A stretch of 64,000 bases of DNA from Ferruginibacter sp. (GCA_039922055.1 JBDSAP010000065.1:360-64359), one strand, 5' to 3'; positions 8,995 to 35,057 are shown, counted from the first letter of the stretch. Program-made: numbers and translations. Notes: a model not told the origin generated them from the sequence alone.

Positions 8995-9560
8995 GAAAAA
9001 GACTCTTGCCCTTTCTCCTCCCCTTGGGGGAGGCCAGGTGGGGCCACATCTCACCGCTCGTTCATCAGCAAAATATGTTCAGCACAAGACTCTTGCCCTA
9101 TCTCCTCCCCTTGGGGGAGGCCGGGTGGGGCCGCATCTTACCGATCTTTCACCAACAAAATATGTTTAGTACCAGGCTCTTCCCCTGTCCCCTCCCTTTG
9201 GGGGAGGCCGGGTGGGGCCACATCTTACCGATTTTCCACCAGCAAAATATCTTTAGTTACAAGACTCTTGCCTTTTCCCCTCCCCTTGGGGGAGGCCGGG
9301 TGGGGCCTTGTCTCTTACTCAGCAGAAGCTTTTAAATTAGTTTACTCTTGCCCTTTCTCCTTCCCTTCGGGGAGGCTGGGAGGGGCCGCATCTCACCCAT
9401 CCTTCCCCAGTAAAACATCTTTAGTTACAAGACTCTTGCCTTTTCCCTCCCCCATTGGGGAGGCCGGGTGGGGCCTTGTCGCTTACTCAGCAGAAGCTTT
9501 TAAATTAGTTTACTCTTGCCCTTTCCTCCTCCCCTTCGGGGAGGCCGGGAGGGGCCCGGC
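8995..9560 (+). repeat. REP-like array: 7 tandem copies of a GC-rich hairpin element (CCTCCCC-TTG-GGGGAGG-CCGGGTGGGGCC), period 80-89 bp
   Basis: Hairpin cores start near 9017, 9104, 9190, 9279, 9359, 9446 and 9526. A roughly 106-bp higher-order duplication links 9251-9356 and 9419-9524. A solo copy lies at 17777-17821, with diverged inverted relatives at 8888-8910 and 7329-7360. Confidence 0.9.
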
Positions 9561-14361: not shown

Positions 14362-17088
14362 TTATTGGGAAGAGATCACTGCAAGGCTTGTTGCATATTC
14401 AAAAACATAATCACCTGAGCCCACATTAAAAACCGTATTGCCATCCTGTTGTTTCACTTCGCCAAATTGATTACCAAGCGGTGAACCTCCCTCCATCACT
14501 TTATCCGGCTGAACAGAAGGGAGCGTAATTGTTGCCGTAGTATTTGCCGGTATACTTACCCTTACGATCAGTTTACCATCCCTCACCTCCCAGCCTGATG
14601 CGATCTTGCCGTATGCGCTTTCAAATCCAGCCTTTGCATAAGTAAGTCTTTTGGTAGGATGCGGCTGGATCAAAATATGTTTATACCCCGGCTCGCCAAT
14701 CTCAATACCGGCCACTACCCTATACATCCAGTCTCCAATGGCGCCGTAAGCATAATGGTTAAAAGAATTCATACCCACATCCTGGAAGGTGCTGTCTGTT
14801 TTTTGCCCATCCCATCTTTCCCAAATGGTAGTTGCACCCATTTTTACGGGGTATAACCAGGATGGAAAAGTTTCCTGGAGCAACAGATCGTAAGCCACAT
14901 CAGTACGACCATTTTTCGTAAGCACATGACACAAATAAGGAGTTCCAAGAAAACCGGTTGAAAGATGATTGTCTCTTCCCTTAATATCATCCACCAGGTA
15001 CTGCGTTGCTTTCGCCCTCAGGTTTTCAGGCAGCAAATCAAACATCAATGACAATACATATCCTGTTTGAGATTCAGCAGTAACGTGCCCTTCAGCCGTT
15101 ACATAATTCTTATTGAAGGCTTCTTTTATCTTTTCAAAAAGGTCGTTGTAAAACTTTTCATCATCTTTTTTGCCTAATACCGCGGCAGTATTTGCCAGCA
15201 ACTTTGTGGAGTATGCATAAAAAGTAGTAGCGATCATATCAGGATTGGTATAGCCATCATTCTCTGTCTGGTTCATAGATTTATAAAACAACCAGTCACC
15301 AAAAACACTTCCGCCTTTCCATATATAACTACCGCCCGCTTTTTTGTGGATGTACTCTACATAAGCCTTCATACTTGGATATTGTGTCTCCAAAATTCTT
15401 TTATCGCCATACACCTGGTAGATCGTCCACGGCGCAATGGTAGACACATCGCCCCAACCAGCCGAAGTGCTTTTATTCCCCAGCACATCGGGAATTACAA
15501 AAGGTACTTTTCCATCACCGTCCTGGTCTGCTGCAAGGTCCTTTAGCCACTTGGTAAAAAAAGCAGCAACATCCATATTGAAAGCTGCCGTGCGAACAAA
15601 CGCCTGTGCATCTCCCGTCCAGCCAAGTCGCTCATCCCGTTGCGGACAATCCGTCGGCACATCCACAAAGTTGCCCTTTTGCCCCCATTGAATATTATGT
15701 TGTAATTGATTCAACAACTGGTTAGAGCTTTCAAATGTACCCGTAGGTTCCATTTCAGAATGAACCACGACACCGATAATATTTTCTGGTTTTAATTCAC
15801 CGGGATAACCATCAACAGCCACATAACGAAACCCAAAGAAAGTAAACCTCGGCTCATAAGTTTCTTCTTCGCCACCTTTCAATAAATATTTTGCTGTTGC
15901 CGTTGCAGCCCTCAAATTATCCGTGTAAAATTCACCATATTTATCCAGCACTTCTGCATGACGGATCGTTACCACTGTGCCGGCGGCACCCTTCACTTTC
16001 AGTCGAATCCATCCTACCATATTCTGCCCCATGTCCACAACTAATGTACCCTTGGGCGTACGAAATACTTTTATCGCTTTCAGTTCCTGTATCTTTCTAA
16101 CGGGAACTGTTTGAGTAGCTACTAAAATATTTTTTGATTGATTGGCGGTATTCACAGCTTTCCATTTACTATCATCAAAACGGGCATTGCTCCACCCCTT
16201 CATTTCTTTGCGTGCGTCATAAGTTTCACCATCATAAATACCATCGAGTATAATAGGCCCATCCTGCGTACTCTTCCATGTATTATCTGTAACCACCAGT
16301 TGCTCGGTACCATCATCAAAGGTTAAACGCAATTGGCATAAAAGGCCCAATGTTTTGCCCCATAAGCCAAAATTACTAACCCATCCAAGTGTACCCCGAT
16401 ACCAGCCATCCGCCAGCATCGCACCCACAACATTACTACCCTGTTGTACAAGATTAGTAATGTCGTACACCTGGTATTGTAAACGTTTATTGTAACTGGT
16501 CCAGCCCGGCGTCAGCACCTGGTCGCCCACTTTTTTTCCATTAATGTATAATTCATAAAAACCATGACTTGTTACATAAGCTCTTGCTGCAACAATTTTC
16601 TTTGGAGCAGAAAAATCTTTACGCAACAAAATCGCCGGCTGTTTAGGTATCGTATCCTGCACCGGTTCTATCCAGGTAGCCTGCCATTCTCCAGGTTTCA
16701 ACAGGCCGGTTTCAAAAAATGCTGCCTCGCTCCAGGCAGATTCTTTATTGGCTTTGTCCCAAACCTTTACCTGCCAGAAATACCGCTGGCCAGATTTCAC
16801 AGCATTGCCATTATAAGGCTGAAGCACTGACTCATCAGAAGCCTGCTTACCCGATTGCCACACAAGCGATTTTTTAGAAAAATCCTTATCTGTTGCTACC
16901 CGGATATCGTAAGCGGTTTGCAGTATATTTCTGCCAGTGCCTTTTAACTTCCAGCTAAACCTCGGCTGTGCCGCACCAATGCCTACCGGATTTATTTTGT
17001 GTTCACATGAAAGGTCGTACACAGTTAATTTCTGAGCCACCCCTGCATGCGCAAGCAACATCAACAAAGCAATCTTTAGTAATTTCAT
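14362..17088 (-). CDS. alpha-L-rhamnosidase, GH78 (copy 1)
   Basis: The likely start is M18 at 17088 (MKLLKIALLMLLAHAGVAQ). The track start at 17139 lies inside a repeat. Motifs PRFSWKL, FFGFRYV and DCPQRDERLGWTGD are present, and the approximately 900-aa architecture fits. Confidence 0.9.
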   Translation of the reverse strand: MKLLKIALLMLLAHAGVAQKLTVYDLSCEHKINPVGIGAAQPRFSWKLKGTGRNILQTAYDIRVATDKDFSKKSLVWQSGKQASDESVLQPYNGNAVKSGQRYFWQVKVWDKANKESAWSEAAFFETGLLKPGEWQATWIEPVQDTIPKQPAILLRKDFSAPKKIVAARAYVTSHGFYELYINGKKVGDQVLTPGWTSYNKRLQYQVYDITNLVQQGSNVVGAMLADGWYRGTLGWVSNFGLWGKTLGLLCQLRLTFDDGTEQLVVTDNTWKSTQDGPIILDGIYDGETYDARKEMKGWSNARFDDSKWKAVNTANQSKNILVATQTVPVRKIQELKAIKVFRTPKGTLVVDMGQNMVGWIRLKVKGAAGTVVTIRHAEVLDKYGEFYTDNLRAATATAKYLLKGGEEETYEPRFTFFGFRYVAVDGYPGELKPENIIGVVVHSEMEPTGTFESSNQLLNQLQHNIQWGQKGNFVDVPTDCPQRDERLGWTGDAQAFVRTAAFNMDVAAFFTKWLKDLAADQDGDGKVPFVIPDVLGNKSTSAGWGDVSTIAPWTIYQVYGDKRILETQYPSMKAYVEYIHKKAGGSYIWKGGSVFGDWLFYKSMNQTENDGYTNPDMIATTFYAYSTKLLANTAAVLGKKDDEKFYNDLFEKIKEAFNKNYVTAEGHVTAESQTGYVLSLMFDLLPENLRAKATQYLVDDIKGRDNHLSTGFLGTPYLCHVLTKNGRTDVAYDLLLQETFPSWLYPVKMGATTIWERWDGQKTDSTFQDVGMNSFNHYAYGAIGDWMYRVVAGIEIGEPGYKHILIQPHPTKRLTYAKAGFESAYGKIASGWEVRDGKLIVRVSIPANTTATITLPSVQPDKVMEGGSPLGNQFGEVKQQDGNTVFNVGSGDYVFEYATSLAVISSQ

Positions 17089-17116
17089 AATAGATTTTTT
17101 TGGTAAATATTTATTT

Positions 17117-17514
17117 GCCACGAATGCACGAATGAACACGAATATATTTTATTTTATTTTTCGGTTTGATTCATTCTCCTGTGCAATTAGATAGTCAAAA
17201 AATATTGTGCCCATTCGTGACATTTCTTTATAAAAGCAATTCCTGCTCTTTTTCATTGGCAAAGCAATTCGTGTCTATTCGTGTATTCGTGGCATTTCTT
17301 TACAAAAGCAATTCGTGTCGATTCGTGCATTCGTGGCATTTCTTTATAAAAGCAATTCGTGTCTATTCGTGTATTCGTGGCATTTCTTTACAAAACAAAT
17401 TCGTGCCCATTCGTGCATTCGTGGCGTTTCCTTAGCAAACAAATTCGTGTCCATTCGTGCATTTGTGGCGTTTCCTTAACAAAACAAATTCGTGTTCATT
17501 CGTGCATTCGTGGC
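17117..17514. repeat. 398-bp foldback element: perfect 27-bp terminal inverted repeats enclosing a 44-bp tandem array (6 full units plus degenerate ones) of triple ATTCGTG heptads
   Basis: 17117-17143 (GCCACGAATGCACGAATGAACACGAAT) is the exact reverse complement of 17488-17514. Unit starts are at 17267, 17311, 17355, 17399, 17443 and 17488. The unit is ATTCGTGtctATTCGTGyATTCGTGGCatttctttayaaaagca. Confidence 0.92.
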
Positions 17515-17528
17515 ATATATTTTTGATA

Positions 17529-17571
17529 CCGGGCATTTGTTTTTTATAGCATCATCGTTGTGTCACAGTAC
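17529..17571 (+). repeat. dispersed TTTTT(C)AT-GCATCATCGTTGTGTC element copy
   Basis: CCGGGCATTTGTTTTTTATAGCATCATCGTTGTGTCACAGTAC. A degenerate inverted relative lies at 17890-17917 (GTACAAGAGGGCGATGCGACGATGTTCC). Confidence 0.75.
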
Positions 17572-17776
17572 TTTCATCGCCATACCTTTGGGGATCTTTT
17601 CCCACCATATATTTAACCCAACATATTCAGCGGCCGCTTGCACATAATAGACTTTTCCTTTCATTGTTTTAAATGAATATACTTGCGGCACGAATACAAT
17701 TCGTAAAAATATCTTTTATCAAGCAATATCGCTGGTTAATGAGCACCTGCAAATCAGCGAGCAACTTTTATCATCC

Positions 17777-17821
17777 TACTCTTGTCTTTCCTCCTCCCCT
17801 TGGGGGAGGCCGGGTGGGGCC
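17777..17821 (+). repeat. solo REP-like hairpin element (same family as 8995-9560)
   Basis: ACTCTTGTCTTTCCTCCTCCCCTTGGGGGAGGCCGGGTGGGGCC. Confidence 0.85.
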
Positions 17822-17955
17822 AAGCCGGCTACTCAGCACACATTTACTATCATTAGACTTTTGTCTTTTTGCTCCCCAAAGCTTTTTTTGTACAAGAGGG
17901 CGATGCGACGATGTTCCTTTATATTCTACCGCCCGGGCCCTTGATATTCTTTATA

Positions 17956-19173
17956 TCATTTCTTCCACAGATTCTTTGTTCTTAGTGGAAGGCCGGGTAG
18001 TTGTGGCAAAGTGGAAACCGGTTTATCCAAATAAAAATAGGCGGTTGCAGACACATCATCTGACCGGTAAAAGTTGGAAAAACCTTCGGGCAAACCGGGC
18101 GTATCGAGTATTAAAAGACTATCTTTTTTATAATAAGGATGTATCTTTTTTTGATCATCAATGGCGACTGGTATCAATGGCACGCCCTTCTTTTGCAATT
18201 GGCTGACGAGGCCTTTCCGGTTGCCTCCCATCTGTTGTAATGTAACGCGGCAATCGGTTTTAAAAAAGATCGGGTCAGGAATATGATAGCGGTAAAATGC
18301 CCAGCCGCTGCTATCTGTATTTGCAAAAAGGCAGCCTGTGTAATCGTTGTGAAATTCACCCTGCCCCCAGCCTGTGCCAATATAATCTTCAGCACCAGTA
18401 CCAACCAGCGTCGGAAACTCCTTATCTCCATCAAGAAACATTTTTACTTCACCTTCGCCCCACCAATATTGTTCATAAATGGGATTGGCTTTGATGCCGA
18501 TATTTACGCCGAGGAATCTGCCTTTACCATTAACACGGGGAAGCAATTCATAGTCCTTCGCCAACTCTGTAGCGGTATCGCGGTTCCAATATGCATGCAA
18601 ATACATATTGCCGGGATTCCATTTTTCAACACGCTGAAAATCTACATCAAAGAAAAGATGGCTCAGGCGTTTGCCGGATTCATTGGTGACCTGTATACGG
18701 GCCGCCTTTTTAAATGGCATCGGAATATAACAGATAAAGGATCGTCCTTCGGGATTACCAAATAAAGCATTGTTGTATTTAGCAGTTTTTCCTAAACCCA
18801 TTCCAAAAAAATCACCAAAGGGGACTGACACGGCTGGCTTTTTTTCATCATCCCAAAACATTTCCAGCTTAAGAGAACGCAGCATTTCGGGTGAACGATC
18901 CATGATGGTTACCCATATCCTGTTGATAATACCCTGCCCTTTTACATTTAATAGCACCTCTGTTTCTCCGGCCTCTACACCATCTGAAGGATGACCTTTA
19001 GCGCCATTATTTTCCATGCCGCCTTTTCCTTTTTCAGCAGTGATATTTTCGAAACTGCTCCAGCGTGGACTGAGGTTTGGATCAAATTCAAATATGGGTT
19101 TTGCTGAATTAAGTTGTGCATTGGCCATGAAGCAAAAAAAGCTACAACCTGCTGCCAATAAAATATTTCTCAT
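17956..19173 (-). CDS. exported DUF2961 / GH172-family protein (furanoside-active family)
   Basis: Signal peptide MRNILLAAGCSFFCFMANAQ. The hallmark YWWGEGEVKMFLDGDKEFPTLVGTGAEDYIGTGWG is present. Confidence 0.8.
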   Translation of the reverse strand: MRNILLAAGCSFFCFMANAQLNSAKPIFEFDPNLSPRWSSFENITAEKGKGGMENNGAKGHPSDGVEAGETEVLLNVKGQGIINRIWVTIMDRSPEMLRSLKLEMFWDDEKKPAVSVPFGDFFGMGLGKTAKYNNALFGNPEGRSFICYIPMPFKKAARIQVTNESGKRLSHLFFDVDFQRVEKWNPGNMYLHAYWNRDTATELAKDYELLPRVNGKGRFLGVNIGIKANPIYEQYWWGEGEVKMFLDGDKEFPTLVGTGAEDYIGTGWGQGEFHNDYTGCLFANTDSSGWAFYRYHIPDPIFFKTDCRVTLQQMGGNRKGLVSQLQKKGVPLIPVAIDDQKKIHPYYKKDSLLILDTPGLPEGFSNFYRSDDVSATAYFYLDKPVSTLPQLPGLPLRTKNLWKK

Positions 19174-34800: not shown

Positions 34801-34995
34801 ATTATAAACAAGGGTAGCACATTATTGGTATAATTCCTAAAAGGAAGATCCCGGACGATCTCTCAAAAACCAAATGCTAAATTCATCACGTGACAAAGAA
34901 AAATAAATTTAAACGCGAGAGCTCATTGAATTTTACTTTATTACTTTTTTATCTTTAACCTTAACAACAACTTTATAAACTACTATTTATTTTAT

Positions 34996-35057
34996 GACAC
35001 GAATTAATACGGTGCTTTTTTTTAATTCGTGTAATTCGTGCATCTAATTCGTGCAAT
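34996..35057. repeat. second locus of the ATTCGTG-heptad family (small foldback plus three direct heptads)
   Basis: ACACGAATTA (34997-35006) is inverted relative to TAATTCGTGT (35022-35031). This is followed by AATTCGTGcatctAATTCGTGc. The locus lies about 200-260 nt upstream of the 34800 start. Confidence 0.8.

Follow-up and report, generated by a model that had tools for sequence, protein, structure and literature searches.

A heptad-array element upstream of a GH78 gene in Ferruginibacter sp.: a probable solo member of a repeat family associated with GxxExxY nuclease-fold genes

Results

The locus upstream of the GH78 gene

The window analysed here is a stretch of 64,000 nucleotides of Ferruginibacter sp. 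On its minus strand a GH78 alpha-L-rhamnosidase gene is preceded by a DUF2961 gene, and the 867-bp gap between them contains an array of ATTCGTG heptads with inverted termini (Table 1). The first-pass annotation had described a foldback element, and a foldback, non-coding and non-autonomous-looking repeat between two co-directional glycan-utilisation genes is supported. The array indeed adjoins the start of GH78: the distance from the left arm to the ATG at 17088 is 29 nt. This ATG opens a signal-peptide-like sequence (MKLLKIALLMLL...) of the five-domain GH78 protein and is the likely start; the N-terminal extension MFIRAFVANK arises from a GTG at 17139 and, as had been suspected, is spurious.

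Table 1. Features of the locus and related loci of the same genome. Coordinates without a contig prefix refer to the window.
Feature	Coordinates	Strand	Remarks
GH78 alpha-L-rhamnosidase gene	14362..17088	-	downstream neighbour; Pfam Bac_rhamnosid6H, E = 6.5e-129, and four further GH78 domains
Left arm	17117..17143	-	GCCACGAATGCACGAATGAACACGAAT; exact inverted copy of 17488-17514
Spacer ("loop") between the arms	17144..17266		123 bp, non-coding, AT-rich; blastn against the genome
Tandem array	17267..17514	+	six 44-bp units, the final one consisting of the arm only
Rest of the gap	17515..17955		pieces of at least three other dispersed repeat families; blastn against the same genome, 129 hits
Dispersed repeat pieces in the gap	~17539-17605, 17769-17822, 17865-17936		blastn against the same genome
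Small CACGAAT/ATTCGTA palindrome	17687-17712		inverted-repeat search
DUF2961 gene	17956..19173	-	upstream co-directional neighbour; Pfam PF11175, E = 9e-68
Second family member in the window	34995..35057		solo TTACACGAATTA-type hairpin, one CACGAAT and three ATTCGTG
PF13366 cassettes	C15:2180-2554; C2:11427-11798		between inverted heptad arrays (two of the five PF13366 genes)
TIGR02436 genes	C38:24477-24797; C152:297-623; C125:5539-5862; C166:7223-7534		between arrays such as TGATGTG ... CACATCA
RAYT-like Y1 genes	C70:15474-15971; C292:66-638; C341:3342-3965; C79:13119-13691; C146:7002-7547		

The inverted termini reported earlier are confirmed: the outer 27 nt at the two ends are exact reverse complements, and with the flanks the inverted repeat reaches 42 nt at 90%. 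The left arm contains three heptads, which read CACGAAT on the plus strand and ATTCGTG on the minus strand, and a GCC cap preceded by an edge of an A-run and a T-run. The right arm ATTCGTG-N3-ATTCGTG-N1-ATTCGTG-GC forms, together with a linker of 17-19 nt (ATTTCTTTAYAAAAGCA and variants), a unit that starts at 17267, 17311, 17355, 17399, 17443 and 17488 (TRF: period 44 bp, 5.7 copies, 87% matches, 17266-17516). The six 44-bp units with three heptads each, at start-to-start spacing of 10 and 8 bp, stand as first described, with the third heptad of the 17443 unit, ATTTGTG, as the sole exception; this tandem count is taken from a short-read assembly of 435 contigs and may be wrong. Units 1 and 3 are indeed the closest pair (95% identity, against 93% for units 1 and 2 and 89% for units 2 and 3), but the difference amounts to two positions, which is too weak to claim the 88-bp higher-order repeat that had been suggested.

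The 89-aa ORF at 17166-17435 reads through the repeats, has no family match in this context, and was rightly taken for an artefact. Apart from one degenerate unit (about 17207-17266), whose single heptad is at 17213, the spacer between the arms is unique in the genome. The triple pattern ATTCGTG-N3-ATTCGTG-N1-ATTCGTG occurs seven times in the window, always in the array region, and not once in 100 shuffles. The window has 27 heptads, compared to the expected 7.1 +/- 3.1. The element itself holds 3 + 18 heptads and is intergenic; members of the family described below have at least three heptads at 8-10-nt spacing.

In the sense of GH78, six CACGAAT-type units are followed by the 123-nt spacer, one ATTCGTG-type arm, a 28-nt A-rich leader and the ATG. 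A cruciform or RNA stem covering the GH78 start had been proposed. A stem is indeed predicted (28 bp, RNA fold z = -2.8), but the start codon lies outside it and the A-rich leader is single-stranded in the predicted fold. The Bacteroidota-type -7 box TAnnTTTG does not occur on the GH78 strand throughout the 867-bp gap. This is a weak hint that GH78 may be co-transcribed with DUF2961, with the element inside a polycistronic RNA. A scan with promoter and terminator consensuses yielded nothing above shuffles, and Rfam returned nothing, either for 16500-18500 at E <= 1 or for the whole window at the gathering score. An ortholog of the GH78 locus is absent from the relatives compared, where the best match is 50% identical and lies in another context.

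The gap as a whole is almost wholly repeat-derived. The central piece in its distal part is a GC-rich hairpin repeat (tcctcctccccttgggggaggccgggtgggg) with many copies in the genome, including one at 9100-9310 of the window, and the pieces on either side of it represent two more dispersed families (hits on C383, C208, C401, C31 and C301). A minus-strand ORF of 33-42 codons at 17563-17691 (…MKGKVYYVQAAAEYVGLNIWWEKIPKGMAMKVL) is probably spurious.

A genome-wide family of heptad arrays

The genome assembly (5.9 Mb, 435 contigs, 40% G+C, 93% complete) contains 757 heptads. Of these, about 335 fall into 55-56 clusters with three or more heptads each, and every cluster is intergenic. Counted over the genome, as the first-pass annotation had proposed, heptad arrays thus form some 55 clusters, so the window array is not alone. 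Single heptads are no commoner than composition predicts, and hence the excess is all in the clusters. In an unbiased count of doubled 7-mers ATTCGTG ranks first genome-wide, with 99 doublets versus 0 for the reversed word. The clusters are situated between tandem (30), convergent (15) and divergent (7) genes; they adjoin unrelated genes, at 3' ends as well as 5' ends, and many are 3-20 bp from stop codons. There is a hint of a pattern in heptad orientation relative to the nearest gene end.

The arrays occur as short hairpins GCCACGAATGCACGAATGAACACGAAT-loop-ATTCGTGTNCATTCGTGCATTCGTGGC, as one-sided arrays built from TTACACGAATTA words, and as tandem arrays in which an arm with a locus-specific linker of 36-130 bp is repeated. 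Many arrays are one-sided and direct, and unable to form a hairpin (C70, C218, C334, C409). Arms are commonly amplified in tandem, both at further loci and next to the gene-bearing cassettes described below, whatever the neighbouring genes. The heptad words are conserved across the family loci, but the linkers are not, and copy numbers and linkers differ locus by locus. The A-type arm, (A-run, T-run)-GCC[A/G]CGAATG-CACGAAT-Gnn-CACGAAT, occurs in inverted pairs. Its outer edge (A-run, T-run, GCC[A/G]CGAATG) is conserved in 68 arms genome-wide, and both termini of the window element match the 68-arm consensus. The same arms were found at C142, C367, C414, C257 and the C15 cassette. The outer arm edges show neither a target-site duplication nor a cleavage signature; the flanks are symmetric A/T runs alone.

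The second family member in the window lies between two minus-strand genes and has about 20 similar copies in the genome, several of them with conserved flanks (gttaacaatgaaatgacgtatgatt...). At C6:7133-7673, two heptad arrays in direct rather than inverted orientation enclose an ORF of about 125 aa that does not belong to PF13366 (MSEFELNPDLNIEV...).

The exact triple heptad was found in Dyadobacter, Flavobacterium, Pedobacter, Ferruginibacter, Flammeovirgaceae, Cyclobacteriaceae, Crocinitomicaceae and other Bacteroidota. Its distribution within the genus is patchy: 17-99 heptad doublets are present in 7 of 25 genomes and none in most others. Doublets are absent from 16 other genera of the order.

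Association with GxxExxY (PF13366) genes

At two loci of the same genome, inverted heptad arrays about 500 bp apart enclose an ORF of 124-125 aa. It encodes a GxxExxY protein (TIGR04256, E = 3e-38; PF13366 PDDEXK_3, E = 8e-35) from a large family spread across many phyla, whose function is listed as unknown (PMC3424549). The arms of the C15 cassette are GCC-capped and consist of 8/10-spaced CACGAAT, the same word and type as in the window element. The three other PF13366 paralogues of this genome are bracketed by other words, CACGGAT/CACAGAT and CAGGATT. No PF13366 ORF or remnant was detected in 17089-17955 (hmmsearch --max, 97-sequence PF13366 profile, six frames; best E 0.86). Since there is no trace of the gene in the gap, the GH78 element is solo and not a cassette; a degraded cassette at this locus was rejected on the same ground.

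The association was observed in samples selected in different ways. Among 114 loci (848 kb) from other Bacteroidota selected by the heptad only, eight contain a PF13366 gene, and in all eight it is flanked by heptads. Conversely, 80 metagenome loci were selected by the protein only (59-79% identity), and 72 of them have both flanks. At least one exact heptad within 300 bp of the gene was found at 56 of these 72 loci, at least two at 48 and at least three at 39, the chance expectation being about 0.08 heptads per locus. Most of the remaining loci carry variants with one or two substitutions: CACTAAT, CGCGAAT, CGCTAAT or CACAGAT. Among 86 unselected PF13366 genes from 40 relatives, 40% have a non-trivial flanking 7-mer repeated at least five times, versus 4.8% of 1500 control ORFs. 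The flanking words mostly follow the pattern C-R-S-N-N-A-K (CACAGAG, CACAAAG, CGCAAAG, CACATAG, CGCAGAT, CGCTAAG, CGGGAAG and others).

The words co-vary with the protein clades. When 97 proteins are placed on a maximum-likelihood tree, the CACGAAT-flanked genes, 17 in number, all fall into a single clade (one change on the tree versus about 15 in shuffles of the labels). All word labels together require 27 changes versus 41 +/- 1.3 for shuffled labels, a value reached in 0 of 1000 shuffles; with every locus that had suggested the idea removed, 26 changes remain versus 37.6 (0/1000). Within the CACGAAT clade, the GCC-capped 8/10-spaced context (A-type) tracks the subclade of the C15 protein and the TTA-context (B-type) that of the C2 protein (10 changes versus 15 shuffled, reached by 3/1000). 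The window array has the context of the C15 subclade. Such co-variation could also arise if a gene and its flanks were simply inherited together.

The cognate gene is present in almost all heptad-rich genomes. Of 41 genomes, 10 contain a gene of the CACGAAT clade, and ten or more doublets occur in 6 of these 10, versus 1 of the 31 without it (Fisher p = 3e-4; within the genus p = 0.007). The exception, G015 (88% complete), has 17 doublets and no PF13366 gene. On the other hand, four genomes hold the gene with just 1-4 doublets, and thus the gene is not sufficient for spread.

A second word family, CGCAAAG/CTTTGCG, is represented by about 24 hairpin loci in the genome studied (e.g. C60:4863-5080, C9:8290-8500, C222:1300-1690). 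In relatives this word flanks a distinct PF13366 clade. Its cognate paralogue was not found in the 93%-complete assembly despite the 24 hairpins.

An AlphaFold (AF2) model of the GxxExxY protein, built on an alignment of eight sequences, has a mean pLDDT of 85. Its best Foldseek matches in PDB are Cas4 SSO0001, archaeal Hjc resolvase, lambda-type exonucleases and RecU, with TM of about 0.5. These matches are generic and fit a minimal PD-(D/E)XK core in the predicted structure. A search of PDB by sequence yielded no relative. The D...E-x-K motif is intact in both cassette copies of the genome. At L119:6598-6969 the catalytic D is replaced by Y and the K by R, and the arms are retained; judging by the sequence, this copy may be an inactivated nuclease kept in place.

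The preT-preA gap and look-alike cassettes

The C15 cassette is situated between PreT-like and PreA-like genes (gap C15:1995-2828). The same arrangement was found in three other Chitinophagales assemblies, with proteins 73-76% identical, and thus the insertion is old. The gap was compared among congeners with PreA 86-92% identical (L326-L339). It is empty (40-61 bp) in four of them (G002, G003, G007, G018). The genome studied here (G000) has the CACGAAT cassette, and G001 and G011 have a PF13366 cassette with CGCAAAG arms. In G015 and G017 the gap contains a TIGR02436 gene between inverted arrays of TGAATG-type words, and in G005 and G032 it contains word hairpins without an ORF, of the CGTTTAA/TTAAACG type in one genome. 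This variety shows gain, loss and replacement of cassettes at one site. With five states across the genomes, the gap is a hot spot. Every cassette seen in it is co-oriented with the operon.

The five TIGR02436 genes of the genome studied, which encode four-helix-bundle proteins, also lie between inverted word arrays. The architecture is that of the nuclease cassettes and the cargo is unrelated. The TIGR02436 proteins owe their first name to intervening sequences (IVS) of 23S rRNA; four-helix-bundle proteins of this kind are not known to be enzymes. The existence of such look-alike cassettes implies that the arms may serve a cargo-independent purpose at the level of RNA.

Discussion

Interpretation of the GH78 element

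The element at 17117-17514 is best explained, with a probability of about 0.6, as a gene-less (solo), non-autonomous and locally amplified member of the nuclease-bearing CACGAAT/ATTCGTG word-array family. Some 55 copies of this family are scattered over the genome, and the family has a gene-bearing full form; the element thus has the appearance of a passenger and not of a switch dedicated to GH78. The complete form of the family is a cassette in which a GxxExxY protein of about 125 aa (PF13366/TIGR04256) is encoded between two inverted arms, each of them a short tandem heptad array capped by GCC and an A/T-run. The window element has arms of the cassette type with the 123-bp non-coding spacer in place of the gene, and one arm with its linker has been amplified six-fold into the 44-bp array, probably by slippage or unequal recombination between the word repeats. 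We infer that the nuclease, or a factor cooperating with it, recognises its own word array, because the gene and the words are linked, the words are clade-specific, the two co-occur in genomes, and the words are conserved but the linkers are not. Such recognition would keep the words conserved and would let arms and hairpins spread to new intergenic sites. On GH78-sense RNA, pairing between the arms would give a long stem in a region that is probably intercistronic, and this stem may affect RNA processing or stability; we regard this putative effect as a by-product and not as the reason for the element.

One alternative, which overlaps in part with the explanation above, places the function in the RNA, similar to IVS. 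The inverted arrays would form a double-stranded stem that is cut, for example by RNase III, or that stabilises or terminates transcripts; the cargo genes would ride inside the stems, and solo hairpins such as that of GH78 would be processing or stability sites between cistrons. The predicted stem on the GH78-sense RNA is perfect over 28 bp (z = -2.8), the lack of TAnnTTTG on the GH78 strand of the gap suggests co-transcription with DUF2961, all preT-preA cassettes are co-oriented with the operon, and two unrelated cargo families share the architecture, one of them being named after IVS. However, any compensated sequence would do for a generic stem, yet the exact heptad is kept across orders and the linkers diverge. 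Moreover, the many one-sided direct arrays (C70, C218, C334, C409) cannot form a hairpin, and Rfam provides no match. Thus this alternative is rather doubtful.

The other alternatives have a much lower probability. That the heptads are operators binding a regulator, LytTR or another, of GH78 or of polysaccharide-utilisation genes was a natural suggestion, as direct repeats at 8-10-bp spacing resemble response-regulator sites and the array abuts the GH78 start. However, the 55 clusters adjoin unrelated genes, 15 of them lie between convergent genes and many are 3-20 bp from stop codons. Within one genus the word is patchy, and it is missing from 16 further genera of the order; its identity follows the clade of the nuclease gene and not the neighbours, and each locus has its own linkers and copy numbers. 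It is therefore very unlikely that the array serves as a dedicated operator of a local regulator, as suggested initially. A contingency (VNTR) locus, at which selected changes in unit number would tune GH78 expression, is suggested by the six near-identical 44-bp units directly upstream of the gene; against it, arms are amplified at other loci and cassettes regardless of the neighbours, and the locus has no ortholog in relatives, which leaves this reading little credit. The remaining candidates are a conventional REP/REPIN mobilised by a RAYT and a MITE of a DDE transposon. The genome does have five RAYT-like and three IS200-like Y1 genes, and the element, being palindromic and extragenic, shares the inverted termini of such repeats. 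However, each Y1 gene has its own, different flanking repeats, none of them heptads; the element has neither a GTAG or CGTC tag nor a target-site duplication; and PF13366 is the only gene found between GCC-capped CACGAAT ends. Such an origin is highly improbable.

No published description of the heptad/nuclease family was found. We found no paper connecting GxxExxY/PF13366/TIGR04256 or TIGR02436 proteins with repeat arrays, and searches of the literature for the letters of the heptad returned chance matches only. Dispersed bacterial heptamer arrays had no known partner (PMC4679880). The clade-specific pairing of nucleases and arrays makes two questions testable: the role of the nuclease, and what makes and maintains the arrays. 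For annotation, heptad arrays create false ORFs and false N-terminal extensions, as at GH78, and further evidence is needed before they are taken for local regulatory sites. The GH78 locus is ordinary within its family, and the interest lies in the family and its partner gene.

Comparison with known systems

Some known types of repeats were rejected on structural grounds. The array is not a CRISPR, because the whole 44-bp unit including the linker repeats at 80-95% identity and there are no unique spacers. A ToxI-like type III toxin-antitoxin array was rejected, as the neighbours are GH78 and DUF2961 and the family is dispersed at about 55 loci.

The window element resembles a MITE in that it is non-coding and that its terminal inverted repeats, perfect over 27 nt, are the same as those that bound a longer, gene-bearing element, and the family resembles MITEs in having filled and empty sites among relatives. 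Unlike in MITEs, there is no recognisable transposase or target-site duplication, and the termini are word arrays of variable copy number. The only gene that shares its ends with the window element encodes a nuclease-fold protein not known as a transposase. The proposal of a classical MITE insertion is thus not supported: neither a target-site duplication nor a DDE or Y1 transposase with these ends was found.

Cyanobacterial STRR heptamers are dispersed intergenic heptamer repeats. The TAACTGA heptamer arrays of Beggiatoaceae, Cyanobacteria and some Bacteroidetes have no known mechanism or binding factor (PMC4679880). In both, as here, one specific heptamer is scattered over intergenic regions, often just upstream of start codons, and is phylogenetically sporadic. 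However, those arrays are strictly head-to-tail, use another word and have mostly one orientation, and no inverted-arm cassette or associated nuclease gene has been reported for them. IVS of 23S rRNA with a TIGR02436 ORF are similar in that a small ORF of the same families lies inside long inverted repeats with the potential to form an RNA stem. Unlike IVS, the copies described here are situated between protein-coding genes and not in rRNA, and there are solo arrays without an ORF.

The closest parallel is provided by the REP/BIME/REPIN elements with their RAYT (Y1 HUH) transposase (PMC3116915, PMC3337134, PMC5581495, PMC3479197, PMC3733652). By definition, a REP consists of one imperfect palindrome, 20-40 nt long, one end of which has a conserved GTAG or CGTC tag (PMC3733652). 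Membership in this class was rejected, as the element lacks the two features that define it, a Y1 partner and a tagged palindrome; the arms begin with GCC-CACGAAT. A RAYT/IS200 partner was rejected as well. The genome has eight Y1_Tnp hits, five of them RAYT-like, none with heptads within 250 bp, and all eight genes are bracketed by their own different repeats. The RAYT-like genes are flanked by inverted REP-like repeats such as aggcgcaggactcctgtcctgtgtctac and gaaaccccgacg; thus classical REP-RAYT systems coexist with the heptad family in this genome.

As in REP/REPIN systems, the repeats are short and extragenic, come as inverted pairs folding into hairpins, number in the tens and show mosaic tandem arrangements. 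As with RAYTs, inverted copies of the repeat bracket a protein gene of low copy number, the type of repeat changes together with the protein clade, and the system is patchy among related genomes, with some sites long-lived and vertically kept. Unlike in REP/RAYT systems, the partner is a GxxExxY protein of the PD-(D/E)XK fold where those systems have a Y1 transposase, the arms consist of 7-nt words repeated in tandem at 8-10-nt spacing instead of one tagged imperfect palindrome, and one genome hosts several paralogous gene-word systems. By this analogy, which is close in logic, the GH78 array might be viewed as a counterpart of a REPIN without a RAYT. If the pairing is functional, a relationship of the REPIN-RAYT kind would have been invented independently with another enzyme, and this would bear on how bacterial genomes tolerate and use persistent repeats. 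We tentatively suggest, as a conjecture somewhat short of even odds, that GxxExxY proteins of the PD-(D/E)XK fold are sequence-specific nucleases or recombination factors acting on the heptad arrays that bracket them. They would constitute a second, RAYT-independent class of repeat-plus-enzyme systems with many paralogous specificities (CACGAAT, CGCAAAG, CACATAG, CGCAGAT and others), which would seed solo hairpins and arrays such as that of GH78 across Bacteroidota and would have its architecture in common with the four-helix-bundle "rRNA-IVS" ORF cassettes.
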